Assembly: GCA_008632985.1 (NCBI GenBank)
Contig: QPGO01000063.1
Location: 372,001-412,276 of the forward strand
Reading direction: 5' to 3'
Length of the DNA: 40,276 nt
DNA from: Psammoneis japonica
Taxonomy: Eukaryota
The position numbers and the translations under genes were made by a program. Below are positions 7,476 through 32,510 of this stretch, piece after piece. Each line of letters opens with the position of its first letter. Positions within the stretch are counted from its first letter, which is position 1. The notes beneath the pieces were generated by a model. That model made no database searches. It saw only the letters and a program-made list of their open reading frames with translations, and was not told where the DNA came from.

Positions 7476-7486
7476 TGGCTCTGATA
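7476..7486 (-). promoter_or_regulatory. Primer-binding site, initiator tRNA-Met type
   Basis: Minus strand TATCAGAGCCA three bases inside the 5' LTR, matching the core of the canonical TGGTATCAGAGC PBS. Confidence 0.75.
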
Positions 7487-7489
7487 AAG

Positions 7490-7673
7490 TGAATAAATAC
7501 TACCATGATAGCTAAGAATTGGGTGTAAGACAAGACAGAGTGTTGAACAGCATCAACAGGTTCCAGAATTGTGAGATGTTACGCTGCTGGGGCCACTAAA
7601 TAAGCGACAGTGGACCAATCGCCAACAGCGCTTAAACTGCCTACATGCATGACAGCACATCAGCATTTATTCA
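7490..7673 (-). repeat. 5' LTR of the copia element (184 bp)
   Basis: Direct repeat of 573-756 with a perfect 9-bp terminal inverted repeat TGAATAAAT...ATTTATTCA. Confidence 0.95.
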
Positions 7674-11800: not shown

Positions 11801-12210
11801 TGGCAGTGCCACAAGCGGCAATCTGTGCTGAGTTGTTCACTCACATTTGTCACAAAATCTGTGAGAGAATCGTCTGCCACAAGAGAAGTAAAGAACAATC
11901 AACCTTTCTGGTGTTTCTACGATGGAAAATTATGAGCAATTCTAAAGACATCCAAGTCACCGAACAACAATAAATTGTTGTGACAGTTAAATCGTGACAT
12001 CTCTTGTCACTTCTGACACTCCATGGTAGACGGACAGACACCCAAATCGTTGGCGGAATTCCATTCCCGGTCAAAGGTATCGTATGATACGGTAGACTAC
12101 CGGTAGTATGGTACGGTAGGTGAGGTCAGAGCGAGCGACGAGCGAGGAGCGAGGAGTCTCCAGTCGAACACAACGAAGCAGCGGTGCTATTTAAAGCACT
12201 CTTAAAGGTA

Positions 12211-13203
12211 ATGCCATTTCGTACCAGATCAGCTCCCCTTCAGGTCAGATTGTCAATGATTCATCGGTGCATTTTACTGCTCCTTGTACTGTTGCTCCTG
12301 ACTTCCCTGTTGATGGTGAGCACACTCACAGCTGCCAATGATAACACGGAAATGTTTAATGCTCCACCTGGGGCTCCTATGATGAAAACGACGAACAAAT
12401 CGGAAATCAAAACAATTGCGATTCTAGGAGAACGTAACTCCGGCACGACATGGATGCTCAAAGAGATACAGCGATGTTATGGCGAGAACTTTGAGATTCT
12501 AAACCATCTGACGCGACATAAGCATGCCTTTCAATACGATACCAGAAAACCTCGTAATCGAACGCTAGTTGTGTCCGAATTTCGAGACCCGTACCAATAT
12601 GTTTTGGCAATGATTGAAAAGCCTCGCAAAGCTATTGCGCATCGACAAATGGATTGGAAAACCTTTGTGACGACACAGTGGACCACGAAACGCGAAGAAT
12701 CAGACAAGAAGTATGCCAACAGCACTGACCCCGTCTGTCAAGATCGTTACAAGTATGCGGAAGTCGTTCCGTGCGAACATGACAATGTACGACCAAACGA
12801 ATATTTGACCAACAAACGACTGCGGTACAACGAGAAAGAGCCAACTCGCGAGGAACCAATTCAAGATATCCCACTTTATGAAATGAAACGTGACGGATCG
12901 GGCGAGCCATTTGCCAGCATTGTCGATTTGCGTGCTGAAAAGATTCGCAATCACGCTGTAGAGGTTAAAGATTTCTCCTTTGTTGAAGACGTCGTTATCG
13001 TAAGATACGAGGATTTGCTACAGGAAGGGACGGCACCCTTGCACCAACAAATATCAGAGATTGTAGGGACCAAGCCTCACTGCGATGCGACGCCGCCACA
13101 GAAGGATCGGCCGCAACGTCAAATCAAGGATGATTTCAAAAATTGGATGGACGAGCACGTTGATTGGAATGCTGAAGCTCTTATCGGATATAAGAAGTAT
13201 TAG
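12211..13203 (+). CDS. Secreted or membrane-anchored P-loop sulfotransferase-like protein (GERNSGT family)
   Basis: Intact ORF with first ATG at 12211. N-terminal hydrophobic segment, ILGERNSGT motif, RDPY and VRYEDL motifs typical of sulfotransferase-like folds. Normal TpA/CpG and Tyr content. Confidence 0.8.
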   Translation: MPFRTRSAPLQVRLSMIHRCILLLLVLLLLTSLLMVSTLTAANDNTEMFNAPPGAPMMKTTNKSEIKTIAILGERNSGTTWMLKEIQRCYGENFEILNHLTRHKHAFQYDTRKPRNRTLVVSEFRDPYQYVLAMIEKPRKAIAHRQMDWKTFVTTQWTTKREESDKKYANSTDPVCQDRYKYAEVVPCEHDNVRPNEYLTNKRLRYNEKEPTREEPIQDIPLYEMKRDGSGEPFASIVDLRAEKIRNHAVEVKDFSFVEDVVIVRYEDLLQEGTAPLHQQISEIVGTKPHCDATPPQKDRPQRQIKDDFKNWMDEHVDWNAEALIGYKKY

Positions 13204-14548
13204 TAGCATATTTTTTTACAACTGACACTATCGCATCGATTCGCCACATTTTTGACTCATTCTAGAGATTCGCCGGCGAAGTCACTCAGACAACAGTTCT
13301 TCACGCCGACAGAATGCAACCCGGACAGCATTTCCCGTATTGTTAGATCCACCATATCCTTATACGCAGGCGTACGGCGGATCACCTTTTTTTTCGCGTA
13401 ACGGAGACTGTCCACGTGTCGTTCGGCCTCCTCTGTCAGGAGCTTCCGACACTCATTATTAGAAGCATTGAATGTCGTCTTTGCTGCTATTGCCTCCCAG
13501 TCAAAGCTCCGTTCCAGAATATTAACATAAAAAAGGTTTTCATTGAAAGCTTCATCTTGAAGCAAATGAGAGGTTGAATCATGCTTCGCAAGTTTTTTGT
13601 CGGCCCAAAGCGCCATGTTTCGAAGCAACTCCACGGCCTTACCAACACCTTCGTGAAGTCGTCGTTGGTAAGCAGTTGAATTACAAAAGATAGTACTGAA
13701 TTGGCGATCCAGATCCAAATGATGAAGATTTCCATCTTTGTCCATCAGCACTTGAAAGTCATGAGTGAATAATGGCACTGCCTTGATCAGCTCCAGTGTT
13801 GTTTTGGCATCGCGCTCAAGGTTACGGGCAAATTTCTGTACTTCCGTGGGGAAATACTCCAGTTTACGCTGAACGACATCCCAACTTGATCCTTTCACCA
13901 ATAAATGTGGATCCGGTGCAACTTTGACTCTTTGGATCATCACATTCTTACCAGTGATGTACTTTTCTTCGAGTTGCTTTCTTTTGTTTGCGTTGCGTAG
14001 GTTTGAGCTCAGCAGAGCGGCGGAAGAGTCTGTGACATTCACATAGCTGGGAGGCCCCAAAAGAAAATGGCTTATTCCAAACTCATTCGTGAGATACTGT
14101 GATAACTTCCATCCTTCTTCCATCTGAACAGTTCGCTCGTTTCCAACGTTGGAGACGATCAAGTACCCTAGGTGTTTGTCGGCCTTGTCATAAAAGAAGC
14201 ATTTGACAGCACCACAAAGTCCACCAATATTCATGTTCAGTCGATTCCAGTCAAAAATATCTTCAGAAATGTTAGGCATAGAAATGTTCAAATCACTCTC
14301 TTTTCTTTCAGGTGTTGAAAAATCCAAATCGTTCTCTTCTCTTTGCTGTTGTTGTCCTAAAACACTTGCCTGCAAATGCATCTCTGTCAGAGAAACAAAT
14401 GCGAAACTGAAGAATAGCACTAACTGGAGGATGAAAAGTTTTGGTTTGCTTGCTTTGTCTTTGTACAAATGCATAGTAGGAAGCGACTTTATGCTCTTGT
14501 TTTTTTTTTTTTTGTTCTGAACAAGACAGAAGGAATCATCTAATGATG
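13097..14548. repeat. Segmental duplication copy A (3' end of the GERNSGT gene plus most of the convergent gene)
   Basis: Collinear, highly similar direct copy at ~21413-22837. Confidence 0.92.
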
Positions 14549-14597
14549 ATCGCTCAATAGCTTGTGGTTTTTTCGGCGGATGATGCATGATGGTCAT
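13257..14597 (-). CDS. Hypothetical type II membrane protein, 446 aa (GxCGxxKCFF...DFQVLMDKDGNLHHLDLDR; possibly an atypical kinase-like fold)
   Basis: Intact long ORF with a basic N-terminus, one hydrophobic helix and normal composition. Paralog at 21561-22830. The fold guess is inference only. Confidence 0.8.
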   Translation of the reverse strand: MTIMHHPPKKPQAIERSSLDDSFCLVQNKKKKNKSIKSLPTMHLYKDKASKPKLFILQLVLFFSFAFVSLTEMHLQASVLGQQQQREENDLDFSTPERKESDLNISMPNISEDIFDWNRLNMNIGGLCGAVKCFFYDKADKHLGYLIVSNVGNERTVQMEEGWKLSQYLTNEFGISHFLLGPPSYVNVTDSSAALLSSNLRNANKRKQLEEKYITGKNVMIQRVKVAPDPHLLVKGSSWDVVQRKLEYFPTEVQKFARNLERDAKTTLELIKAVPLFTHDFQVLMDKDGNLHHLDLDRQFSTIFCNSTAYQRRLHEGVGKAVELLRNMALWADKKLAKHDSTSHLLQDEAFNENLFYVNILERSFDWEAIAAKTTFNASNNECRKLLTEEAERHVDSLRYAKKKVIRRTPAYKDMVDLTIREMLSGLHSVGVKNCCLSDFAGESLE

Positions 14598-14699
14598 GAT
14601 TCATGATGGTGCGTCGGAGGGAAGTTTCAGTCGTGAGTCGAGTCCCACTATGCATTAGTCCCACGGAGAGCGAATCCTGCGCGACAGTTGGTCCCCAGC

Positions 14700-17600
14700 C
14701 ATGGAGGAGCCAAGTCTGAAGTCTCAGGGAGAGCAAGTCTGGGACAGTCAGAAGAGAGCCTTGCATTGTGTGCCCATAATTTTAAAAGAACAGCAGATTT
14801 TAAAAGATGCCCTTAGCACAGAGGCCACAGGAGCCATCAAACATGGCATCAAACCTTCCCAAACAAGAATGTGTGTTTTGTCACTCGAGAGATCAACAAG
14901 GAGGGATTTGGGAATGACCTCACAGACCTTGCAACAGCCCATCAATCACTTCCTTTGTCATTCTGCAACCTGCCACATGAACCACTCAGAGTGCAAAATT
15001 CCATCAAATTTCCAATTGGTGCAATTTTCCAACATTGGCTCAAACACAAAAGAAGTGCTTTTCTCTTTGTCACGACCTCGTTGTTGGCTGCCACCCCAGC
15101 CTCCTTTCCAGCCAGCCACTCCTTTTTTGCCATGAATCTCTTGGCAAGGTTTTGGAGTTTTCAACCATTGCAACAATTTTCAGAAATTTTTTGGCACCAA
15201 AAATTCCCACTCTGGCTGCCTCAAGAGCCACCTGTCCCAGGGGGTCGAAGCCAGATTCAGAACATCCAGGGGACCTGGGTGCACCTCCAAAACTTGCACT
15301 GGGTGCATCAACAAAACCATGCATGATGGAACAAATGCCAGTGAAAAGACCATGAAGAGCCATCACACCAGGGGCAGAAGATGGAAGATCACAAAAAGAA
15401 AGGGGTCTGAGGGCATCGATGTCGCACTTGAGTTTCTGAGCAAGGGGGGGGGGGGACTTTGTTGGGCAAGAAGCACTTCCAGGATCATGTGCAGTTGTCA
15501 TGGGCAGGTTCGGGGAGACAAGTGGGGTCATGCCAGCAGCATTTGACAATTTTGAGTGCCCGCCAGCACTGGGGGAGGGGCTCAAAGACCGAAAAGTGGC
15601 CAGCCCCAATTGATGGATGTCTGAGATGGAGAGTGTGCTCCCTTGTGTCAGACAGACTGGCTCATGTGGGCTGGAGTGATCCAATGATGATCTCTCCTTT
15701 CTCACTTTCTCTCAGCTCTGGTGCATGGCTGCATCTGTCCCAGACATCAACAGATCCTCATCCCAACACCAGCAGATTGCAAGATTGCTTGTGAGCAGCA
15801 GTTGTGTGCTGTTTGCATTTCTTGACACAAGCACGCTCCCCCTTGACATGTTGTCATCATGACCACCACAGAACACACGCCAGTGCTCTGCACAAGAATT
15901 TGATTTTTGTTCTTCCCATAAAACCATGGTCAACAAGAATGCAAACACAGCCAATGAGACTGAGATCAAGCCAATGCTGGTTAAACCCAACCCACACAAT
16001 CACTCACCTGATGCCCATCAACACCTGAGTGCCCTTCACTCTGATGAGACACAACTGTTCCTGAAGATCTTCTGGACTGATTTGCTCTTCCTCCAAGCCT
16101 CAAGAGCAATGCTGTTGCATGTGTCCATCATGAGATCATTCAGGGTCTTGTCATTCTCTGAGCTGTGCCAGCTGAGGATCTCACAAGGATTGGGCTGGTC
16201 ATGGACAGTGCTCCTCTTTTTGTGGTGGCTGCCCCATTTAAGTTCTCCAATTCATCTGAACCATGCCCATCTTTAGAAGGCCAAGATGCAGGCTGTCTTG
16301 CAGGATTGGGATGCTGTGACAACACATGTTGAGACCCTCTGTCTCCACTTTTGTCCTGGTTTTGAGTGTCGTGACCATTGGAAGAACACACATCAGATGG
16401 TCCATGCCCCAAGTCCTCTCATTCTTGGAGTTCTTCATCTCAACTGGCTGCCAGTTTAGATCCTGCTCCTGGAGATTTTGTGCCAAGGTTTCAGCTGCCC
16501 ATTTGCCTGGCCCAAAAGAGTGTGGGCAAACTGTGGCCAATGCATTGGAGAGTGCTCCACCACCTCCCAAAAATGCTGCCTCAACCACACCTCCATCTGC
16601 TGTCCTGTGTGCCTTCAACCCCAAAAGACTTCCTTTGGATGTGTTGACTCACTGCCAATGCAACGAAGACAGCAAGATGATTTTGGGAAAGTTTTTGGCT
16701 CCCTGCAAGCCATGCAACTGCTTGTGTTGTGTGAAGATGGTGATGACTCTTCTTTTTTGTTGCACAATGAGTGGGATGCCAAGTCTTTGCTGTGGGATCC
16801 CCATGCTTGCAATTGCACTTCTCTGCAAGGAATGTTTGCATGTGGTGCATTGCTGTGACCCAGCAGGCATGGCTTGTGGCATCCACATGTGTGCATGTTT
16901 CATCAAAGATGGAGACAATTGTGATGATTTTCACTTTGAATGTGAGGGCCTCTTGCACAGATGAAGCTGACTTTTTGACAGCACACTCAGAATGTTGGGG
17001 GCCATGCTTCTGACTGTGTTGGTGTCAACAACAAACCTGTTGGATTGCTGTCTGTGATCACTTTTCTTGTGCAGTCCATGGTGTTGCACGGGTTTCCAAG
17101 GCCAGTCCTCTCAAATGGCTTTGCTGATTTTTGGATCAACATTGGCCACATTGCTGTGACAAACACATGTTTGTGGATCAGGTGAGAATCATGCACACAA
17201 AAGTCCAAAAGTTTGTGACCTTTCTTGTCAAGAATTCCACTGTGACTTGTGCCCTTCTGGTGTTGGCACATCCAGTCAATGTGGGCCTTTTTAATGCTCA
17301 CATTTGACTGTTGAAAATGTGGTTTGTGCACTTTTGATTGTGTTGCCAACCTTCCAATTCAATTCTGGACCTTTGTTCTGTCACTGCCTGTGAACCAACA
17401 ATGCCACTCCATCAAAAGATCAAGATGCTTCTCCTTGCTGTTGCTGCTGGCAAGGTTGAGGATGCAGCTGCATCAAGGTCATTTGGATGTTGCACATGGG
17501 CAAAGCAGCCATCCAACTGACCTGTTCAATTCACAACAAACTCCAAGAAGGGTGTCTTCTGTGGTTGTCCTTCTAATGCCTTGAATGACATGCTCTGGTG

Positions 17601-19200
17601 GGATCTAGAGATTGACAAGGTCAAGACAGCCAATCAAGTGCAATGTGATGAGGCCATGTTGTAGTTGTGGCATCGCGTTTACATTTTCAGATGGGAGCTG
17701 GTGTCGTGTGGAGAACATTCTTCACACGAAATGAAATTCCTGCCATGGAAAGGGATGCACAACTTCTGACCAAATGGTTTCGCGCAACAGATGATGCAAG
17801 TGTTTTCGGAATGTGCTCAGCACGGCCATGCAACACAGCCTGAATGAAACTGTCTGCCCTCATGATGTTGACATGTTGTGACTGTTCACAGCATTCCGTT
17901 TCATGATGAAGACAATGTGGATCACTCTTCCTGTGCCACACACAAACACTGCATTGTTTGTTGGCAGAGTTTGCCATTACACTCCCGGGTTGGGACACAG
18001 AAAAAAATTGCTGCTGGGGTTCTTTGTCGATCATTCATGCCAAGGCTGATGGTTGTCAGCACAGAAGATTGGAGTGTCCAGGACAAGGATCAGATGTCAT
18101 TGAGTTTGAAGGAAGATGGCTCTTTTTTTCAGTGACAACAAGCAACCACCAGTGAAGGGAGTGCAGGAGGAACCAGAACTCTAGAACATGGGGGAGCAGG
18201 AAGCTTGGGTTCGGCAGATCAACCAGCATGTTCAGAGTGCCAACTTTTTCACTGTGGAGTTGCTCACTTTGAACAACAAATGTGCAAATGTTTTTAAGCA
18301 GGGTTTTCCTTGGGTTGAAACTGCACACACATTGGAGCAGAAACAAAATGAGTCCACAACCACCTCTGCAGGTGTGTCAAAAAATCTGTGAACTCACATT
18401 TTTGCCACCCTCATGTCATGCCTCAGTGATGCACCTGTGCAAATTTACAGAGCTGACCTTTTTTGTCAGCCCCTTCATGGAGAGCACCAGTTGTTGAACA
18501 TTTCACCACAGTCAGTGTCACTTGTGGTGCAGGAGCCCCAAGGTGATTGCCAGAAAGTTGTGTCAGGCACGGCGGGCAGGAAAAACTTTGGGGCAAATCA
18601 AGCAGGGTTGGCAGCCACCATTCACTGCACTGCTCCACACCACAAAAATTTCATCACAACCTGTGGGGACAGCAAAGAATGGGGCAGAAATCCATGGTCT
18701 CCATTCTGGCCCAACAGGGAGGAGCAACCAGAGCCAACAACACCCTTGATCAACATGGGCCCACAGCTTTTCCACAAGCAAGTCCCAGTCATGCCAACAG
18801 ATTTGCTCCACCCATTTGGGGACAATGCATGGAGTGGGGGACAAAGTGCAGAACAACGGGGCACCATCCTTTGCTTCCTTGTGCCTTGTGCCAAAGCAGG
18901 GAGGCATCATTTCCAAAATGTCTGACTTTCATCTGCCAGTTCCCACCAAGAAGCCTGCACAATCCAGGGAAAGACATTGTTCAAAGTGGTTGAGAAGTTG
19001 CCAGAAAATGTTGCAAGCTGTGAAGGACAGATTTCTTTGAATGACCCAGCAGAAATTGTGGCCAAATGACTTTCCTGTGTGGCATTTTCCAACTCAGCAC
19101 CAGTGCCCCCAACTGCCCACAGGGAGAGGTGTCAATTGTGGCCTTGTCTGCCTCAGTTGCTGTCAGCACATCACTTGCGCTGCTTGGCTCCCAAAGCCAA
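14700..19200. other. Heavily mutated repeat-derived block of unidentified origin
   Basis: Nearly devoid of TpA and CpG, with many short overlapping ORFs and no motif I can assign confidently. Confidence 0.5.
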
Positions 19201-19209
19201 CTAAAATGA

Positions 19210-19246
19210 TGTTTCCTGAATGTGCATTTTGGTCAGACCAAATTGC
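19210..19246 (+). repeat. Solo fragment of the TIR of the 176-531 MITE family
   Basis: TGTTTCCTGAATGTGCATTTTGGTCAGACCAAATTG matches 179-214, with its CpG sites decayed. Confidence 0.8.
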
Positions 19247-19369
19247 CAAGCTCAAGTGTGAGCCTTGCTTGCTGCATTTCTCCACTTGTTTGTCTCCTTT
19301 TGTGCTCCTTGGCACTGCGCCTCCCTCAACTTGTGGTGGCACCGACAATGCCTCAGCACCCCAGCAGGC

Positions 19370-21412
19370 ATTCCCATGACAACCGTGTGTCCACTCTGAG
19401 TGCAATGCATTGGTGCCATTTTTGCACTTCTCACACTGGCTGATCATCAAGATGGCACACTGGGCAGCATTCAGGTTGAACTGCTTTTTGTGACAAAAGG
19501 TGGGGTCTCCCATCAGCACAGAGCCCACATGCCATCATCACAACAGGTCTTGAGATTGACCACAACAAAAGTTGCCTCCTTTGGAGTTCTTCAAACAGTG
19601 CACACAAACACACAAGGAGAACAAAACAATGCCATGGTGAGTCACACAATCTGCCCCGCTGCCCTGAAACCAACTAGAGATCCAGGGTGAATGCTTTTTC
19701 ATGAGTCTTGTGACCAGCTGATGTGTCAACCAAAAACCCAACACCTGTGGCAACACCACCCATGCTCAGCACCATGATCAATCAGGTGTGCCACATCTTT
19801 TGAGATGCAACAAGGCATTAAAAGGCATCAACTTCCAGGGTCAACCAGGGTCAAAGCAACAAGTCTGTCATGGACAAAATTTCTGCATGTTCTCAAAACA
19901 ATGAGCAAGAGGACTCAATCTCAGACCCCCTGTGAGATGATGTCAATGACTGTGACAACTGACAGTGACTGTGACCCAGACAATGACCCTGACATTGAGG
20001 ATGACAGTTCTGCTCATGAGGCAAACATCGATGCCAACACCTGCCTCCGCCAAACAACTTCAACATGATGCCAAGACACTGGGCAACCCAACCAACACCT
20101 CACAAAATGGTCTCAATGCAGGTCTGGGAGGAGAGCCACTCAAAACCACACATCTGTGGACCACAACCCTGTCAAAAATGCAGGAGTGGGACAAGAGGCA
20201 TCTGATGAACAAGGCCAAATTGTGGACAAAACCAAGGGCCAAGTGACAGTCAACACTGACATCAACCAAAATGATGCCAAGCTTGGTGATGAAAGCCAAA
20301 CTGACCCTGTCAAGATCAAAAGGGATGTGGACAAAAATCACAGCAAGGGTGCACTGGTGAACATGCAATCCCCAGAAAAAAACCCAGATCATGTGACCAC
20401 CTGCACCTCACCATGCTCAGCATCAACTGCACCCAACACCCCATGAAAAAAGGACTCAAGATGTTTGGTGCAAAGGATGAGAAGGCAACAATGAAAGAAA
20501 TGGAGCAACTCAAGGTGATGGAGGTTCTCAAGCCTGTCAATGCCACTGCATCAACTGGCTAGAGAAGATGAAGGTGACACAAAACCACATGTTCCTCTGA
20601 GGCAGAAACAATGCGGCTGCATCTGGGGACAAGGATGCATGGACAGCCAACCCCAGAGAAGATGCATTCATCAAAAAGAAACACATTGGCACCTGCTTCC
20701 CACACCAAATTCATGCCACTGCTGCACACCATTGGCACTTAAGAGGGCAAGTCACAGCAATTTTGTGGACCTCCCAGGCTTCTTCATGCAGCTGGACCAA
20801 GAGGGAGATGTGTGCCTCCTGACAAGGCAGGAAGGGGTTGTGGCAGTGGACATCCTGCTCCATCTCAACTGTGAGAAAGATGCAAAATGTGTGGTTCACA
20901 AGAATGGCGAGAAGGTGCCACATGTTGAACTTCTGAAGGCACTTTGCGGGACCATGACCGGTGCACTGATGGCATGGAAGAAGCCAGCATGGATCCTCAA
21001 GAGTTGGGGATTTGAAGTGAACCCACACAACATGTGTGGCAAACAAGATTGTAGATTGGAAGCAATGTGTCATCTTGTGGCATGTGGATGACCTGAAGCC
21101 ATCACACGCAGACAGTGACATGATCCCAGACATGATCAAGCAGCTCAAGAAGGAACATGCCAAGCACTTTGGACCAACCATCACTTCAGGAGACCTGCAT
21201 GAATGCCTTGGGATGGCTGTCAACTCAAAGGGAAGGTCATGTTGAGCATGTTCCAAAATGTTGACAAGATCATGGACTCCTCAGTGCTGGCAGATGTGAA
21301 CGGCGAGAGCCCGACCCCAGCGGCGAACCATCTGTTCAACACAAACGAAAAGAACCTGTGGGAACGCTGAGTCCGGAGGACCAAGAAACCTTCCATTCTG
21401 TGGAGGCCAAGT
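19370..21412 (+). mobile_element. Decayed, truncated copia pol (integrase C-terminus to RT) of a second CoDi lineage
   Basis: ALKPTRDP (ALRPTGN motif), KKGLKMFG...KEMEQL, GQGCMDSQPQR (GRGCADGRPQR), VDLPGFFMQ, LKALCGT (KALYGT), WHVDDLK, HECLGM (HDYLGM). Cut off at 21412 by the gene duplication. Confidence 0.88.
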
Positions 21413-22837
21413 CACAGAAGGATTGGCCGCAACGTCAAACCAAGGAGGATTTCAAAGATTGGATGGACGGACACGTTGATTTGAATGCTGGAGCTGTTAT
21501 TGATATAAGAAGTATGCAGCATATATATTTAATAACTATTGCCATCGCACTGATTATGACTCATTCTAGAGATTCACCGGTGAAGTCACTCAGACCACAG
21601 TTCTTCACGCCGAGAGAATGCAGCCCAGACAGCATTTCCCGTATTGTTAGATCCACCATATCCTTATACGCAGGCGTACGGCGTCTCACCTTTAACTTCG
21701 CGTAACGGAGACTGTCCACGTGTCGTTCGGCCTCCTCTGTCAGGAGCTTCCGACACTCAACATTAGAAGCATTGAATGTCGTCTTTGCTGCTATTGCCTC
21801 CCAGTCAAAGCTCCGTTCCAGAATATCAACGTAACGGTTTTCATTGAAAGCTTTACCTCGAAGTAATCGAGAGGTTGAATCATGCTTCTCAAGTTTTTTG
21901 TCGGCCCAAAGTGCCATGTTTCGAAGCAACTCCACGGCCTTACCAACACCTTCGTGAAGTCGTCGTTGGTAAGCAGTTGAATTACAAAAGATAGTACTGA
22001 ATTGGCGATCCAGATCCAAATGATGAAGATTTCCATCTTTGTCCATCAGCACTTGAAAGTCATGGGTGAATAATGGCACTGCCTTGATCAGCTCCAGTGT
22101 TGTTTTGGTATCGCGTTCAAGGTTACGAGCAAATTTCTGTACTTCCGTTGGGAAATACTCCAGTTTACGCTGAACAATATCCCAACTTGATCCTTTCACC
22201 AACAAATGTGGATCCGGTGCAACTTTAACTTTTTGGATCATCACATTCTTACCAGCGATGTATTTTTCTTTGAGTTGCCTTCTTTTGTTTGCGTTGCGTA
22301 GGTTTGAGCTCAGCAGAGCGGCGGAAGAGTCTGTGATATTCACATAGCTGGGAGGCCCCAAAAGAAAATGGCTTATTCCAAACTCATTCGTGAGATACTG
22401 TGAAAGCTTCCATCCTTCTTCCATCTGAACAGTTCGCTCGTATCCAACGTTGGAGGCGATCAAGTACCCTAGGTGTTTGTCGCCCTTGTCATAAAAGAAG
22501 CATTTGACAGCACCACAAAGTCCACCAACATTCATGTTCAGTCGATTCCAGTCAAAGATATCTTTAGAAAATTAGGCATGGAAATGTCCAAATCATTCTC
22601 TTTACTTTCAGGTGTGGAAAAGTCCAAATCGTTCTCTTCTCTTTGCTGTTGTTGTCCTAAAACACGTGTCTGCAAATGCATCTCTGTCAGAGTAACAAAT
22701 ACGAGAGTGAAGAATAGCACTACCTGGAGGACGAAAGGTATTGGCTTGCTTGCTTTGTCTTTATACAACGGCATCGTGGGCAGCGACTCGACGCTCTTGA
22801 ATTTCCTTCTGAACAAGTCAGAAGGAATCTAATGATG
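21413..22837. repeat. Segmental duplication copy B, including a degenerate 3' fragment of the GERNSGT gene (21413-21516)
   Basis: CACAGAAGGATTGGCCGCAACGTCAAACCAAGGAGGATTTCAAAGATTGGATGGAC matches 13097 onward, and similarity continues to ~22837. Confidence 0.92.
21561..22830 (-). pseudogene. Paralog of the 446-aa type II membrane protein with a 1-bp frameshift near 22570 (pseudogene or assembly error)
   Basis: ORFs 22538-22816 and 21561-22535 together align to 13257-14597. Copy B is one base shorter at AGAAAATTAGG versus AGAAATGTTAGG. Confidence 0.75.
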
Positions 22838-23666
22838 GTAGCTTGTTGTTTTATCGCCGTAGTATGGTGTCAACCTTGATGGACGCTGATTAATTGGCAC
22901 AGCTAGTCTATCGTGCTGCCGGTAGTCAACGATGCTACACGGCACACTCAACACACAAGTTGGAAAAAGTGAGAGGGTTGTTCCCTGGCGGCACAGCGGC
23001 AAAAGATTTTTGAGATCTGTTCTTTTAGCATAGTGATTTATTCACAACCCAATAACGATATAGTAGGACTATTTCGTTTTCCCATGTCCATGCATGGATT
23101 TATCTTTCGTTTCAAATTTTTTTAAAATGGTGGAGTATGGTAGAAATAGAAGAACATTTCTGCTATCCACGACCTGTGAACGTTGCAAGTGTTGCTGCGG
23201 TGATGCGCGCTTCGCTCGCGCATTGTGCATGGTCATCCAATTTTTTGTTTTTGAGGGAGGATTGGGAATGGTGCTGCTCAACAGTGCGAGAGCCAATCAG
23301 AATTTGTGATTTCTGCTGAAGGGGATCCTCGGAAAGTCGAGGACTTTCCGATCAATTGGTTGACAAACTTTTGGAAAATCTGAAGCAATGATTTGGGGGC
23401 GAGGAGGTTGGCACAAGAAGAGCTCCCTGAAAAAGCAGACACAAGAATCAGAAGATGACACGGAGACCGACGATCGTCTTCCTTTCATGCCATAGAAAAA
23501 CACAACAACACAGACTTTTCTCACAATGAGAAACAATTCTCTTACAAAAAAACACAAGAGAGAAAAGCGCAGTCTCTGCTGGTGCTTCGATGGTGGTGAA
23601 TGGTGTGACAGAAGAACCCTCTCTGCCAAAAAAAATGGCTGCACAGTGGCAGCTGCATTTCTTTTT

Positions 23667-24547
23667 TGGCAACATGGGTGCTCAATCCCAGAAATGCAAA
23701 GGGTCTTTCAAAATGAGCAAAAGCCAAGCACAGACATGCCAGAAACTGTCAGCAAACCGAGGGCTGCTGCGCATGCTGGTCAGACTGGTGCGCGCGGTTG
23801 ACAGCCACAGATGTGTCAGACAGACAAGCTCTGAACCCTTGCACTTGTTGCTCTCAGCTGACATTGCCATTCTGACAGGTTGCAGCTTTGTGAGGAGGTT
23901 GCATTTGTCTGCATTGCAAGTCCCGCTGTGACCCACACTTGGTTTGCAAGCCGATCAATGGCAACATGGGTGCTCAATCCCAGAAATGCAAAGGGTCTTT
24001 CAAAACAAGCAAAAGCCAAGTGCAGACATGCAAGAGACTGTCAGCAGAAAGAGGGCTGCTGCACATGCTGGTCAGACTGGTGTGCGTGGATGACAGCCAG
24101 ATGTGTCAGACAGATGAGCTCTGGACCCTTGCACTTGTTGCTCTCAGCTGACACTGCCATTCTGACAGACTGCAGCTTTGTGAGGAGGTTGCATTTGTCT
24201 GCATTGCAAGTCTTGCTGTGACCCACACTTGGTTTGCAAGCCGATCAATGGCAACATGGGTGCTCAATCCCAGAAATGCAAAAGGGTCTTTCAAAACAAG
24301 CAAAAGCCAAGCACAGAGGACATGCCAGAAACTGTCAGCAGACCGAGGGCTGCTGTGCATGCTGGTCAGACTGGTGTGTGCAGGTGACAGCCAGATGTGT
24401 CAGATGGACAAGCTCTGGACCCTTGCACTTGCTGCTCTCAGCTGACATTGCCATTCTGACAGGTTGCAGCTTTGTGAGGATGTTGCATTTATCTGCATTG
24501 CAAACCCCACTGTGATGCCACCCACACTTGGCTTGCAAGCCGATCAA
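23667..24547. repeat. Tandem repeat, three units of ~290-298 bp
   Basis: Units begin TGGCAACATGGGTGCTCAATCCCAGAAATGC at 23667, 23959 and 24249, and each ends GCAAGCCGATCAA. Confidence 0.93.
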
Positions 24548-25110
24548 GCCAGCATCATTTTTGATCCTAGAAAAGATGTGTTTTCTTGGTGCCAAAGATG
24601 ACTTTTGAGGCCACAGGACAGTGCTGACCTTTGCATCTGTTTAGTCAAAAGCAGATGTGCAGATCTCACCATGGCACACGCTTGCTCCCACAAAGGACAT
24701 CTCATTGACACCCTTGCTGAGATCACCGTGGCACTCCAGCCACATCCTCATTGCAACAAGGCACTTTCAAGAAGCACCTGAGCTGTCTGTGCGCAGTTTG
24801 ATCATTGAGCTTGACCAGCTTTTTAATGGAGCCAAACACACAGAATCAAAAGACAGCGCTGCTGACCTCTTGCAAGAGTGTGCACCACCAATTGTGCAAT
24901 CCTGTTGGAGACTAGAGACCACACAGATAAACTGCCGGCAGTTGTGTCTCTCATCCTTCAAAAGTTGCCTTTGCAGATCACAACTCCAACCAGTGATGAT
25001 GCTCCATCTTGTTTCTCAAGACAGATGTTGGGTCACAAGATCAAGGCTGCTGCTCTCAAGATCTGCACCCCAAAACCAGTCATTCAGATTGATGTTGGAC
25101 ATTTCCACAT

Positions 25111-25851
25111 TTGTCCACATGTGCAGCATGCTTGTCAGTGCTGGAGTTTTCTGACACAGCTTTTGCCTTCAAGAATGCGCCCAAGACCCCAGGGGCACTG
25201 TCAGCAGGATCAGGGTTGGTCAACATCTCTGATTTGATTGACACACTGCTGAACAACAGCTGTGCTTTTTCAAAAGCACCTCCTTTGGGTGGCCACACAG
25301 GCAGCACACCTGCCACAACTGTGTCTTTATCATCCAAACACTTGTTCAACCTGGATGCTCTGCCAAAGGATGTCCATCAACATTTTGATTGCAAGATTGC
25401 CAACAAAGCAATTTCACAAAAGTCACTTGTGCCCTTTGATGATGGTGGCAATCCACACCATTTGGGTGGTGCAGACTGCCTTGTGTTCTTGGCTGATGGG
25501 TCACTCTTTGTGACTGCCCTGGCACCAGATCACAAGGCACTGCTTTGTGAGCTGAGACTGTGCCATGACAACTTGCCACATGGCACACACCAGCAGCATC
25601 TGAATTTTCAGAGGTGCACAACTGATTGTGGGTGTCATGTTCACCCGCTGTGCAACCATGGCAGCAGTTGGGGCTTTGCTGTTGGAAGCCATGCCTCCAA
25701 TCACACTTCACTGCACACCACTTTGACCTGCCTTGGAGCACCCCCCAAACACTTGTGTGTTCATCAAACCCTCACTGGGTGGGCAGTCAGCAGATTGCTG
25801 CAGACCCACACATTCAAGAGTGCTTGGCAAGTGCCACTTGTTGTTCTGTGA
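25111..25851 (+). pseudogene. Possible gag-like retrotransposon remnant
   Basis: Tyr-free 246-aa ORF. HLNFQRCTTDCGCHVHPL resembles a GxYVHP-type segment I associate with diatom copia N-termini once H/C is read as Y. Weak recognition. Confidence 0.35.
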
Positions 25852-26844
25852 GCAGTTGCCACCAGGCAAACAAACTGCCAGTTTTTGCCAAAATTGGCCT
25901 TCTTGTGGGAAACAAGAAGCTGTGATTTTCTGGGGTCATTCAACAAGTGGCATTTGACTGGCTGCTTGCATGTCTGATGCACGTTGTCACAATTGTTGTC
26001 TGTGGCACATTCTAGAGTGATTGGAGCTGGTGTGACTTTGCGGAAACTCAATTTAAATGTCATCTGATCAAAGGTGTTTTGATTTGTGTGGTGAAAAGCA
26101 ATGCCTTTGATCAGATGACACTTCACTTTATTTCTCAAGAAGTTGACATTTAGATGCAGAGAGATGCAGATGGACAGACAGACTGACAGCAATTGTTTTT
26201 GGCTGGCATGGCACTGTGCTGCAAAATTTCTGCATGCAATGACTCTGACAGCCATGACAGCTCCTGTTCATGGTGAGTGGTGTGGAGCTCTTGCTCATGT
26301 GTGTGAGTGTCTGCACTGGCACCAATGTGCAGAGCTTCTGTGTAGATGGCTGAAATGTTTGCACTCACACACTGGCCAAATTGACCAACACAATGTGAGT
26401 CAGCAACAACATCAAGGGTGTGCAACATGCTCAATGCATTGAGGTCATTCCAGACATGCTCAAAGTTTGTTGAACAAACAACAACTGACCAAAATGCACA
26501 AAAAAATCATGCTGGTGTTGGGGTTGTCCAATGTGCAAACAACCTTTGGCACAACAGCAATCCCCGATGCGCTGCTCACAAGTGCAATTTTTGTAATTTC
26601 TCACAAAGTTGTTGCACATGAAATGTCATGTACACACACACACAACATGAGTGGGGACAAAGAGCCCTCATGCAAGGAAGTTGCAAAAACTGCAATGGCA
26701 GGTGGTGAATTGAGTCAAGAATCTGCGACTCTCAGAAATCTGCTGAGACAGATTTTGGGGGGAAATGGCACTGAAGACAATGCAACAAATGGAGCCACAG
26801 TCAGGAATGAAAGCAAGAACAATGGTGATGAGAATGCTCTTGAC

Positions 26845-27022
26845 ATCAGGCAAAGAAACAAGGTTGGTGAAGGGAAGAATCAGAGAAGACAGTTGGGGTT
26901 GGCTCACCCCACAAAATGGCCATTGACTCTGAAACTCATTGGAGCATGCTGTGTCTTTTTGCAGGAGATTTGTGATTTCACAAATCCAAACCCCAGGAGC
27001 AGAGAAAGTTGTTCCAACATGA
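26845..27022 (+). repeat. Diverged ~180-bp direct repeat, copy 1
   Basis: TCAGGCAAA...GGTGAAGGGAAGAAT...GGAGATTTGTGATTTCACAAATCCAAACCCCAGGAG...AGTTGTTCCAACATGA recurs at 28816-29008. Confidence 0.7.
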
Positions 27023-27199
27023 TCCTTTTAGAAACACCACAACCACATGGGAGAGCAGTGGCAGACAGCTGCCTGACCCAATGACAAAAACACTGAAGCT
27101 GGACAATGTGAGCAGCAGCTCAATGAGGAAGCAAGAGCAGGTTCAAGAAGGGACCACGGAAGATCCAAACCAAGTTCAAGGGCCACATGGAGGAACTGT

Positions 27200-27560
27200 G
27201 TGAGTTCACAGCACATGACAAAACAAACAGCAAACAGCAGCAAGCTGGGTTCTTCACAAAGACAATGCAAGAGACTGCCAACTGTGAAGGACAACTCTTT
27301 GACTCAGAGTGACTGCATCAAGGCAACAACTCTTGATCAACTCAAGGAAGTTGATTTCAATGGAGAAAGACCCACTGCAGCAGCAAGAGACACCAATGGA
27401 AATGCAAACAAAAACAACCACCAAGTGGCTGATGAATGTGGGCAAAGAAAAATCAAGAGTTGTGCGAGATTGAGGAAAAAGCACCAACAAAACAGGAAGA
27501 AAGCATGCGCACATTGACATGGAGCCAATGCAGTGATGCCATGAGAGGATCAGCAGCAGA
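27200..27560 (+). pseudogene. Copia gag fragment
   Basis: TLTWSQCSDAMR resembles the (Y)xLIWGQCSxAM motif of CoDi gag proteins. Confidence 0.5.
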
Positions 27561-28815
27561 AGCTGGCAATGACTGTGTGCACAGACACCGTGAAGGGCTT
27601 TTCAAGACAATTGGGCCACTCAAGATTTGTTGTGGGTCAGCCGCTCACGACCACAACAACAAAAAAACACAGACCATGATCTGGGTCACCCACCCATTTT
27701 TGTCCTTTCTCAAAGCAAAGAGGTGGAGCCACACAAGACAGCAGCATGGCAATGAGAAACATGCACTGGACTGCCGCAGAGCACCTGAGATTCATGACAT
27801 GAAATGCATGACACAAGAAGATGGTGAAATCATGACCAACATGATGATGACCAAGATCTCCCTGCTTTGCAAAGTGTTGGATCACACCACCTGGAGCTGA
27901 AGGATCCTCCTGTTGCTGGGAGACCCCCTGCTGATGTTGTCTGAATGTCGAGCTTTGTGCAGAAGGTGTTGAGGCATCATGTTCAACACTTTCACATCAG
28001 CCACCTCAACCTTCTTCATCACAACACCATGCTGCACCATGTTCCCTCTAAAGGTTCTGATGAAATTCACTGGGTGAAAGGAAACCTGGGATGGCTGTGA
28101 GACTTTGCTCCTCAAGCATGTGTTGTTCATCCAGAATTTTTGGCATTGGCTCATCACGCGCTGCTGCAGCAAAGGATGACAGCCCAGCTCTCCTTTTCCT
28201 CATTTTGTCTGGAAATTCTTCTGAGCATGTGGCAACAAATGGAGGGATCATTTGCAAATGAAGCACCTGATTTGGACAGGGAAGTCACCTGTGCCCAGAT
28301 GGCCAATGATCTGCTGCTGGAAAAAGCACATTTGAAGATTGAGCCAGGTCATTCCATTGTGGACACTGGAGGGAGCAGATGACAGCAGGAACAATTTGAC
28401 ATGATGTGACATGCCTGACTTTGAGGCTTCTTTGAGGTTGTGCTTGCTGGCTGTTTCGCAAAGGTGCTGCAGCAGGGATTTGCCACTTGTCAAGTTCTGC
28501 AGCCACCCAAGGGAGCCATGACCGAGAGTGTGGAGGACAGCGCCCCACCACCCAGTCGATGACATGAGCCATTGCAGGAGCATGTTGGGGCACAAAGGGC
28601 ATGCATGCCTGGTGGAGAACAAAAGAAAACAATGATGATTGATGGCAGGTCTAGCTTGGAAACTGCCAAGGAATCTCTCCTCCTGAGAAAATTGAAGCAA
28701 GGACAAACTCGGAGCAAAGCGGTGCTGGAGATGGCACAGGAGCTTGTTCTGCTGGCGAAGCTGCAGGTTCAAGGTGATGAAAATGAGAACCAATGGAAAC
28801 CAGATTGTTCTGGGC

Positions 28816-29008
28816 ATCAGGCAAAATGAACACAAGATCGGTGAAAGGAAAAATGTGATGAGAGGAGACAAGCGAGGTTAGCTGGCAGTTGAGCAGCCGT
28901 CGATTTTGTCACCCATCAGAGTGCTGCACTGTGTTTTCCAGCGGGAGATTTTTGGTTTCATGAATCCAAACCCAGGAGAGTCGGCAGATTGCAGTTGTTC
29001 CAACATGA
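28816..29008 (+). repeat. Diverged ~190-bp direct repeat, copy 2
   Basis: Similar to 26845-27022. Confidence 0.7.
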
Positions 29009-29331
29009 ACATTCTCCGTTTACACAGCACTGAGCACACTCACAAAGCTGCATCAGACAAACATCAGGTGCTGAGCTGGATGTGGAATTGAAACGAACAC
29101 TTCACCATCTTCTGCTTGACTTCTTGGACTGCGACAAACGCACCGCGCGAGGGCGGCACGTGAAATGACGCAACGACGACAAACGAAAACCGCATGCACG
29201 TTCGGTTCGTTTACTGTAGGCCCTATTAGTTTGCAGCAGTGAGAAGAGTGTCAATACAATCCTGAACGCAACATCGCTGCTACTGCTTGAGAGCTGGTCT
29301 CATTAGGCTACATCTTTTCTTGTGACAGTGG

Positions 29332-30404: not shown

Positions 30405-31461
30405 CTACGTAAGATCGACATCGTCATCATCCACACCTCCGTCCTCGTCTTCAATCGACCTCTTCACCTTGACAAGCATGGATGTTTTCCACGGATCGAG
30501 TTTGGAAATTCGATCAAACTCGAAACAAGCCGTTGCAAACCCTTCACTGTCAAATCCCTCCACAGCCTCAATCAGCTGCACACAAAACTTGCCTTCACGA
30601 GACTCTCCAAAGGTATAATCCAGACTTTCATAACGAGAAACACATTGAGATGCAGCAATCGCGTCATTGTTGGCCAAGTGACAAAAGATGGCCTGCAGGA
30701 AGAACCCCTTGGCATTGTACTTTAACAAATTGTTATCCAAACAACGACGTCCCAAACCATCATAAATTTGCGCCGCACGCATCAAATCGGGAGGATCCAG
30801 CGCCGCCGAGCACAACTCGGCCACCTTGGCCAAGCACTGCGACGAGGCGCTGCTGGAATTCTCCATGCCATAGAGCTCGGCGGCTTGTTCGTACGATTCA
30901 ATCGCACAAACAATGCTGCTCTTTCCGTCGGAACCGGTAACGTCTTCTTTTTCAAACAACTCGGCGCATTCTTTCGACAGCTTGGCGGCTTGCAGCAAGC
31001 GACCGGCGTCCACCAACAAGGACACGGACGATTGGTATGCCGAAAGTGCTTCGCTGGGACTGCTCTTTTTGTAACAACCTCCTGGTGATATTGAATAGAA
31101 TAATTGCAATAATATTAGAAATCGACAGTATGTTTGAATAACAAAATTCAATTGAACACAACAGCAACATCATCTTCCTTTCATACTACTACTCACCCGC
31201 ATTGGATAGGCACTTGCTCGCTTCATTCAAATTCTTGAGCTTATCACGATACAGTTCTGCCGCCTTGACGTAGGCGTTTCCGGCTTCGTGGTGAAAGCCA
31301 CCCACCTTGAAGGCGTTGGCGGCCTTTTCGTACAGCTCCGCCGCGTCCTCGTATTTTCGTTCCTTGCTTGATGCCAACCACGTGGATTTACCAAGAGTCT
31401 TTTCGGCATCAGCCAAAAAGGCATCGCCCTTGGCCTTTTGTTGTTTGCCAATCAAGGACAT
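30405..31461 (-). CDS. SEC17: Alpha-soluble NSF attachment protein (alpha-SNAP/Sec17), exons 31461-31197 and 31081-30405
   Basis: KYEDAAELYEKAANAFK, NNLLKYNAKGFF, FGESREGKF, FDRISKLDPWKTSML and C-terminal DLT. Intron GTGAGT...CAG at 31196-31082 keeps the frame. Confidence 0.95.
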
Positions 31462-32510
31462 GGCGTGACCAAGGGGTAGGTGGGAGTGTCGGAGTGTTTC
31501 GGGCGGGGAAATGCCCACTCGAAATCTCAAAGGCATCATTATTTCATTCAATGCGAAGCACGCGATTGCGATTGTCGCGCAGAGGCTCACGGTGGAGTGT
31601 GCATTCCCTTTTCTCGTGACTGTAGATCTATGTTCATGCAACCATGAATGATTTCGACGCAATGGACAGCTTGACGAGTTTCATTTTTGGTATGCCAGTA
31701 GAAATTCAATATGTTTCTACATTCGACAGTTTCTCATACATGCGTACGAAAATCACGAACTCTGCGAGCTCCAACACGAGAATAACACGAAGCACGAAGA
31801 GGCATCGACAGAGCTAATGGCGTTGCTAATACACTGTGAATGCTGAGTGAAAATGCCAACACGTTATTGTCACATAGCATATAGATGATTGGTCTATCAA
31901 CAGACAAAATAAATCGCCTTCAAAGCTGGTCAGCAGCTTCAATGGACTGCACAGCTGTTTGCGTGTTGTCAGGTCGTCTGCGTCGCCCACTTTGAATCAT
32001 TCTCAGATCACAACCACAGCCAACTCCTCCACCAATGTTGCTGATATCTTCTCTATCAAGTTATTGTTCAATTCCACCAATGTTCTCTGCAGTAGAAGAG
32101 CAAATGACAAGACTTCCAGCTCGCCCAACAAGATGACAATGCCGCCGACTTGACAACGCTCCAGCATTTCTATTTCAGTCATAGATTTGTCATGTGACTG
32201 GTTAACATCCACAACCAGTGATCGTTTCAGAAGCATTGCTTGTTTGTGCCCACAAAGCAGAGCCATCTAAACTGCTGCTGCATGGAGAAAAGGACAACAA
32301 AGCAACCACTCGCAGTTCCTGCCACAGAGAGCAACATTTTCAGAGACAGCCCTCCTTGGGATCAGGCTAAATTCACTGTCATGCCACCAATTTAAGCTCT
32401 TCTCAGTTATCCATGCCGGTTGTGTTTGCCACAACACTGCTCAAGTAACTTCCAATGGGGCCAACGCGTCATTTGCTTTTCTTGCATCCACAGAAACACA
32501 TTCAAGGTGA

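Follow-up and report, generated by a model that had tools for sequence, protein, structure and literature searches.

Linked gene duplicates that keep TpA beside converted DNA in the genome of Psammoneis japonica

The closest known counterpart of the process described here is the TpA hypermutation of integrated DNA derived from NCLDV (nucleocytoplasmic large DNA viruses) and virophages in the rhizarian Bigelowiella natans (bioRxiv 10.64898/2026.01.13.699255, a 2026 preprint). According to that preprint, two viral regions are affected, in some lineages only, at a rate of about 6e-7, raised about 1000-fold; a silent insert present as a single copy was hypermutated at TpA by scattered single changes. 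An ADAT2-like adenine deaminase was proposed as the enzyme. With a silent single-copy insert among the possible targets, the trigger there is not duplication, and the question raised by this hypermutation is by what means a system that mutates repeats distinguishes genes from junk. The present analysis concerns a 40,276-nucleotide window of the diatom Psammoneis japonica (GenBank assembly GCA_008632985.1, contig QPGO01000063.1), which is the end (372001-412276) of the contig handled here as G000:C65, or C65, in a 91-Mb genome. A light-harvesting protein encoded in this genome matches fucoxanthin proteins of the diatom type at 2e-82. Within the window, two direct repeats of one gene, copies A and B, keep their TpA next to DNA from which TpA has nearly vanished, so that duplication alone is no trigger here either.

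Two further systems bear on the comparison. Repeat-induced point mutation (RIP), known from Neurospora and further ascomycetes, changes C to T at CpA/TpG and thereby creates TpA; it is triggered by homology in premeiotic haploid nuclei, hinders gene duplication and is coupled to heterochromatin (PMC7296669, PMC11969663, PMC12543289). Diatoms place DNMT5-dependent CG methylation on islands of transposons and repeats (PMC9998398). No diatom report of TpA erasure was found in the literature searched, most subscription journals and supplements lying outside that search.

Kept duplicates on a converted contig

A two-state hidden Markov model applied to C65:22001-412276 splits the DNA into converted blocks and kept islands with sharp boundaries. 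Converted blocks comprise 212,973 of the 390,276 bases (55% of 390 kb) and are mostly repeat-derived; their observed/expected (o/e) ratios are 0.06 for TpA, 0.32 for CpG, 1.72 for CpA and 1.76 for TpG, against 0.57 for TpA and 0.99 for CpG in the kept islands. The TpA that remains in converted DNA is enriched in TTAA, CTAA/TTAG and CTAG and depleted in ATAT and ATAC/GTAT. As in B. natans, TpA becomes TpG or CpA on both strands by gradual, scattered changes confined to regions, and ordinary genes are spared. Unlike the mild depletion given there (Rho 0.45), over half of this stretch is near saturation, CpG decays alongside, and the evidence consists of historical comparisons only. Like RIP, the process makes heritable, dinucleotide-specific transitions that ruin repeats; unlike RIP, it destroys TpA, a direction fixed by pairs of a gene and its dead copy, and it is not RIP. 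The CG methylation of repeat islands known from other diatoms fits the block pattern and the CpG loss and leaves A:T>G:C change at TpA unexplained; in places TpA has been lost here with CpG intact.

Self-BLAST of the window aligned segment A (13097..14578) with segment B (21413..22859) over 1483 columns at 90.4% identity, on the same strand and with start points 8316 bp apart. The initial annotation had described highly similar direct repeats about 8 kb apart, which is borne out; the homology runs some 30 bp farther right than its limits (14548 and 22837). It had missed a third copy, C (G000:C65:363642-364988), which is 92% identical and lies 21 kb upstream. A genome search for close copies gave three matches from three candidates, namely A, B and exactly one more, C. 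Each segment carries a complete minus-strand gene for about 405 amino acids (13257..14474 in A, 21561..22774 in B) together with the 3' tail of the gene upstream; in A these are the last ~100 bp of the upstream gene, a short spacer, the gene and ~100 bp upstream of its ATG. An apparent 1-bp frameshift near 22570 in B is an assembly error, since a contig of depth 53.7 from the short-read run X1 has one extra base behind 22567; the frame is read as intact, and the idea that B is a pseudogene was rejected. The ratio of nonsynonymous to synonymous differences per site (pN/pS) is 0.40 on the B branch and 0.15 on the C branch, on which the root may lie; an apparent frameshift in C sits in a run of A.

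It had been left possible that the duplication was made by the assembler out of two haplotypes of one locus. Near-identical duplicates do occur elsewhere in the assembly (C336/C470 at 99.7%, C91/C541 at 99.8%), which also contains single-base indel errors. Such an origin of A and B is nevertheless highly improbable, and already disfavoured by observation: one contig contains all three copies, each in flanks of its own, and contigs of X1, which may be the assembled sample, bridge the left junction of B (20960-21612), its right end (22663-23400) and the right junction of A (14336-17661) at equal depth. Depth is 48-61 in the unique flanks and 146, about threefold, in the shared middle contig, contig depth being no strict measure of copy number; no X1 contig runs all the way from A to B. 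The 10% divergence between A and B also far exceeds the differences between window and reads in kept DNA (none over 2036 bp in three contigs, three listed differences inside the 5' end of A having been excluded as B-like). At 14401-14407 the X1 contig that bridges the 5' junction of A shows B-type letters at three positions, from either a gene-conversion allele or a chimeric contig.

The normal TpA, CpG and Tyr content claimed for both copies was found again: TpA o/e is 0.47 in A and 0.57 in B, CpG o/e 0.93 and 0.89, and 10 and 12 Tyr codons occur among 400 aligned. The 105 substitutions between A and B show no excess of TA>TG/CA, with TA in A facing TG or CA in B 8 times and the reverse 11 times; CG changes are likewise symmetric (8 versus 6). 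At 52 sites where TA is the majority state, it is kept in 43 cases in A, 48 in B and 44 in C. Across the three copies 11 changes from TA to TG or CA (plus one TA>CG) are matched by 13 in the opposite direction, so that there is no net loss of TpA. The copies have been spared to within about 10% of sites, and the claim that they escaped entirely holds only to that limit.

The ratio of nonsynonymous to synonymous substitution rates (dN/dS) over 400 codons without gaps is 0.50 for A-B, 0.34 for A-C and 0.26 for B-C, and A, B and C look like working genes under purifying selection. Their use as an internal negative control stands in so far as live duplicates were spared; they are not neutral. Because selection acts on the copies, silent sites were examined. 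Eighteen majority silent TA were kept in all three copies and one was lost in one copy, while other silent T/A sites were kept in 135 cases and changed in 13. A rough model at the rate of the hit paralog described below expects about 45 of 57 lineage-sites to be lost; one was. A silent TpA index, which gives how often a silent position in front of A carries T, is 0.37 in A, 0.44 in B and 0.26 in C. Among mechanically picked open reading frames (ORFs) of C65, it amounts to 306/888 in 15 duplicated kept ORFs and 738/2289 in 38 other kept ORFs, those with no duplicate within the stretch of C65 examined (p=0.24), against 64/1111 in 20 converted ORFs, that is, 0.06 versus 0.32-0.35 in kept ORFs. 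Duplicated genes are thus no poorer in silent TpA than others, and duplication adds no TpA loss. Gene conversion was considered as a means of hiding marks: the synonymous rate, 0.05-0.15 in the middle of the copies, reaches 0.18-0.25 at the 5' end, which allows for some homogenisation, and no part is identical enough to hide saturation.

The same comparison was made for other duplicates in 651,221 bases, made up of C65 and of loci and families picked by the author, with at least one intact ORF required per pair. About 12 duplicate sets besides A/B/C keep TpA in these 651 kb, the linked ones up to 5 kb long, in line with the claim that duplication alone does not trigger the process. Both copies are kept in a Patched-type pair (3.97 kb, 88.6% identity) that shares 104 TA and differs at 15 versus 19; a three-copy 5.7-kb array shares 172 TA and differs at 12 versus 8. 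TpA is also kept in a 186-bp coding tandem, four histone-fold loci and several pairs of light-harvesting genes (75-99.5% identical), and many recent paralogs persist at up to 99% identity, some of the closest spared pairs possibly being haplotigs. A Cys/Asp-rich protein at C65:245502-248408 has about 12 tandem repeats of 62 amino acids (186 bp, 79-94% identical), unconverted and without Pfam match. On C78, 307600-340670 and 357303-390123 stand in tandem, are each about 33 kb long and agree at 99.7-99.8% identity, whether through recent duplication or as an assembly artefact.

One-sided conversion of host-gene copies

Whereas the described targets in B. natans are viral or foreign, host-gene copies are converted here, among them two paralogs of gene A and tails of a PhyH and a DUF2214 gene. 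A distant branch of the gene A family forms a three-copy array on C336 (C470 is 99.7% identical to it, and the array was counted once). Its middle gene (~C336:27195-28304) is full-length and open, has no Tyr codon (in the outer copies, 14 and 12 of the aligned codons encode Tyr) and continues past its stop. This copy has lost 32 of 40 majority TA, 17 to TG and 15 to CA, as well as 19 of 54 CG; its other changes (30/919, against 32 and 54 in the outer copies) amount to ordinary divergence, so the change is restricted to TpA and affects both strands. The majority rule favours TA retention in the outer copies, which compared pairwise share 38 TA and differ at 8 versus 2. The pN/pS ratio is 0.58 in the middle copy and 0.34 and 0.35 in the outer ones.

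A second family member was compared between C78 and C168, where 19 of 36 TA were lost, with 2 in reverse, in the C78 copy, which adjoins converted DNA. Counted per 400 bp away from that DNA, the losses on C78 are 9, 4, 5, 3, 1, 0, 0 and 0, and a 5'-3' exonuclease gene in the same C78 block has lost 1 of 77; C168 matches C78 over 13.6 kb, up to the end of the C168 contig. The tail of a PhyH gene lies 8.6 kb from its intact source, a spacing like that of B from A, and has 21 of 22 source TA converted, with 1 in reverse; exactly two matches to it exist in the genome. Conversion is partial in a DUF2214 tail and in one fragment from the 5.7-kb array. In the pairs seen, conversion thus falls on one side, with counts of 21 versus 1, of 32 out of 40 in a single copy of three, and of 19 versus 2. 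Two-copy pieces are hit and three-copy genes spared; no target here is a proven single copy, though C78 and C168 may be alleles. Copies of repeated elements, which were left unclassified, differ by place (17 versus 0 with CpG intact, and 49 versus 1). Transposon identity and copy number, both proposed by the initial annotation as deciding factors, are therefore not supported in that role: low-copy host duplicates are converted and some copies of repeated elements are not.

RIP is known to mutate both members of a pair, a two-sidedness absent from the pairs seen here, those with both copies converted being outside the reach of the census. A RIP-like trigger combined with selection, in which duplicates recognised by pairing are hit in rare heavy bursts and A, B and C survive because hit alleles are purged, has some points in its favour. 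No converted host piece was seen that lacks a second copy or allele, A and B satisfy the substrate rule given in the RIP literature (more than 65% identity over 100 bp), and purging is possible with all three copies under selection. We nonetheless regard it as quite unlikely. A, B and C (1.35-1.48 kb, 90-92%) keep TpA and CpG, leaving selective purging some room; their silent sites bear no footprint, conversion is one-sided and graded within one duplicated block, and partly converted copies together with scattered differences between window and reads suggest gradual change. Recent paralogs persist in number, whereas RIP reportedly hinders gene duplication. RIP is also said to rely on haploid nuclei. 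Vegetative diatoms are diploid. RIP further requires RID or DIM-2; the genome has 27 unclassified matches to PF00145 (cytosine methyltransferase).

Sequence-specific guidance, with small RNAs of transposon families directing the editing and host copies as bystanders, would agree with the repeat origin of most converted DNA and with the fact that the converted host copies on C336, on C78 and in the PhyH tail all adjoin converted DNA; the authors of the B. natans preprint raise RNA guidance as a possibility. As a full account it is more doubtful still than a RIP-like trigger, because copies of one element that are 92% identical differ almost all-or-none by place, for which a guide acting in trans is insufficient alone, and because B and C adjoin converted DNA and yet are spared. 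Small-RNA guidance as a seeding step is compatible with the explanation preferred below. One repeat in the window also differs between its copies: direct repeats at 569-756 and 7486-7673 flank a copia element (RVT_2), and 11 TA of the right copy are TG or CA in the left, with 1 in reverse; the right end sits in a 636-bp unconverted island.

The gene A family has at least nine more members, on C336, C470, C168, C11 and C78, with a conserved motif, DFQV..D..G...H.D.DR, and a weak kinase-fold match. For the protein of gene A itself, Pfam gave no match, the named families of the Atlas all scored under 0.9 and the best relative is one unnamed homolog at 34% identity. A structure model of low confidence (predicted local distance difference test score, pLDDT, 52.6) shows an N-terminal helix and weak matches to kinase folds of the atypical type, which serve as a lead only.

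Surroundings of the copies and islands without genes

The unconverted island of A (11889..14836; TpA o/e 0.53, CpG 1.00) also holds the upstream gene (12211..13203, plus strand), which encodes 330 amino acids without Pfam match and is convergent with A; B and C hold only its 3' tail. A converted block (14837..21494; TpA o/e 0.05, CpG 0.14) separates A from B, and the stretch 14620-17600 has 60 other matches at 68-79% identity. The island of B (21495..23174) measures 1680 bp and takes in 66 bp beyond the stop codon and, at its other end, 400 bp upstream of the ATG; a further converted block follows on its right (23175..29194; TpA o/e 0.05, CpG 0.22). Directly at B ends a converted, retroelement-like fragment (19400..21412, plus strand) with dispersed colinear relatives on other contigs. 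That B lies right beside converted copia DNA had been stated before: the flank is indeed converted (TpA o/e 0.05), and the copia label, which rests on motifs, was not confirmed by Pfam or a pairwise test. The fragment had no Pfam hit and no match to the window's other copia, and a phage search was empty. B may have been pasted into the element or brought next to it by a deletion. Elsewhere in the window, 23667-24547 is a converted tandem of ~292-bp units (90% identical), and an Alpha-SNAP-type gene (PF14938) at 30405-31680 lies inside an unconverted island. No RNA is listed for 12900-22899, which speaks neither for nor against expression.

The DNA beside B seems to have decayed recently. No TA occurs from 21052 to 21498. 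Between window and X1, at least 21 differing positions fall in converted DNA (15409-21317) among the 40 rows listed, 36 further rows existing. Two of the differences are swaps of CA and TG at adjacent bases, at 20096-7 and 20492-3 (1.3 and 0.9 kb from B), where about 0.05 adjacent pairs are expected by chance. Both would indicate recent independent decay of one TA or CG, between which origins a swap cannot distinguish, long after A and B had split. Single transitions between window and reads were set aside as evidence, since 7 of 12 are of TA or CG type, about as the richness in TG and CA predicts, and only the two swaps were used.

Four converted pockets of C65 (89705-90114, 185135-185894, 311321-313232 and 314729-315866) have a CpG o/e of 0.90-0.96. 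TpA was lost there while CpG stayed intact, so TpA loss and CpG decay are separable. Inside converted blocks, unconverted islands of about 375 bp without long ORF occur at C65:70346-70720, 90115-90486 and 121019-121406; two of the three have converted homologues elsewhere, and they may be protected element ends or promoters. A longer stretch, C65:300300-305500, has a GC content of 0.39-0.44, a TpA o/e of 0.63-0.78, internal repeats and no ORF of 140 amino acids, and part of it has a converted homologue at C65:127624-127875 (15 of 15 TA lost).

These features bear on a default mutagenesis with protection, in which a TpA lesion would arise genome-wide, with repair or prevention limited to DNA that is transcribed or open; nothing would be targeted, and all DNA out of use would drift to TG/CA. 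Three of the pockets (C65:89705-90114, 185135-185894 and 314729-315866) are small and intergenic and keep CpG, the island of B covers gene plus promoter, and in every kept gene T stands before A at about 0.55 of its level before other bases, as this account would have it. We consider it unlikely, if somewhat less so than a RIP-like trigger: the stretch at C65:300300-305500 is unconverted without long ORFs, though possibly young, some avoidance of TpA in coding DNA is general, the gradient in the C78 paralog starts from the converted side, and the B. natans preprint reports hits in two regions and some lines only.

Local silencing as a possible gate

Judged from the sequence comparisons, neither homology nor linkage, and neither copy number nor transposon origin, sets spared copies apart from hit ones. 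The spared ones show marks of function and lie in islands covering gene and promoter, whereas hit copies are promoterless tails or copies under relaxed selection that adjoin converted DNA. From this contrast we infer a TpA-specific A:T>G:C mutator, probably gated by local silencing and sparing islands of active genes. Among the candidates named by the initial annotation, silent chromatin would fit best. The mutator would turn TpA into TpG or CpA, on either strand and usually with CpG decay alongside, in silenced domains, for which repeats are the most likely seeds and which would extend some 1-2 kb into neighbouring DNA. It would take a transposon or a host gene alike, one copy at a time, and its changes would accumulate gradually. 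A gene with an active promoter would hold an island made up of its transcription unit and promoter and be spared despite near-identical copies nearby; A, B and C would be a tandem family of three working genes. Under this proposal spared copies would be transcribed and hit copies silenced, the CpG loss would be a record of 5-methylcytosine, and the chemistry would be adenine deamination, taken over from the B. natans proposal.

Several observations weigh against a gate of this kind. The statuses 'active' and 'silenced' are both read from sequence features. B, C and the outer copies on C336 abut converted DNA and are spared, while the middle copy there was hit with its upstream region still alignable. 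Some converted pockets have a CpG o/e near 1, which means that the gate is not CG methylation alone. Instead of paralogs, C168 and C78 may be alleles, and if so duplication is not even needed for conversion. The census is blind to pairs with both copies converted and is built on families picked by the author. A search of the genome for deaminases gave nine PF00383 matches that look like housekeeping enzymes, and no dedicated mutator gene was found among them; one, at C26:119851, we take from its motifs to be ADAT2-like, and ADAT2-like genes are universal. Lastly, six further silent TA occur in one copy only of A, B and C, and under majority polarity transitions at TA positions (13/312) are 2.6 times as frequent as those at other A/T (31/1878; p=0.007), and the left 180 bp account for 6 of the 13; no close outgroup exists, the best relative being at 34%. 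There may thus be a weak TpA leak in the three copies. The polarised excess was not accepted as proof of leakage: three copies give no root, gains offset losses, and the polarity-free shares of TA among transitions (18/56, 11/52 and 13/56, against 0.22-0.23 expected; p 0.08, 0.63 and 0.53) show no significant excess.

Taken alone, the A/B pair is an ordinary tandem gene family, valuable as a control. The wider family provides a natural series: besides three linked copies that were spared, it includes a middle copy that was hit between two spared neighbours and a half-converted one whose losses follow a gradient of distance. This series rules out a simple homology trigger and leaves strict targeting of transposons unlikely. 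In genomes of this kind, open frames that are free of Tyr and rich in Cys and His are likely to be dead copies and not new proteins. Tentatively, and with the balance of probability slightly against so broad a statement, the process could be a chromatin-gated editing of DNA adenine that makes silencing permanent: a silenced paralog or allele would be rewritten at TpA until it has no Tyr or stop codons left, and active copies at a distance of a few hundred bases would be immune. Such a defence, unlike RIP, would allow duplication and pick which duplicate dies.

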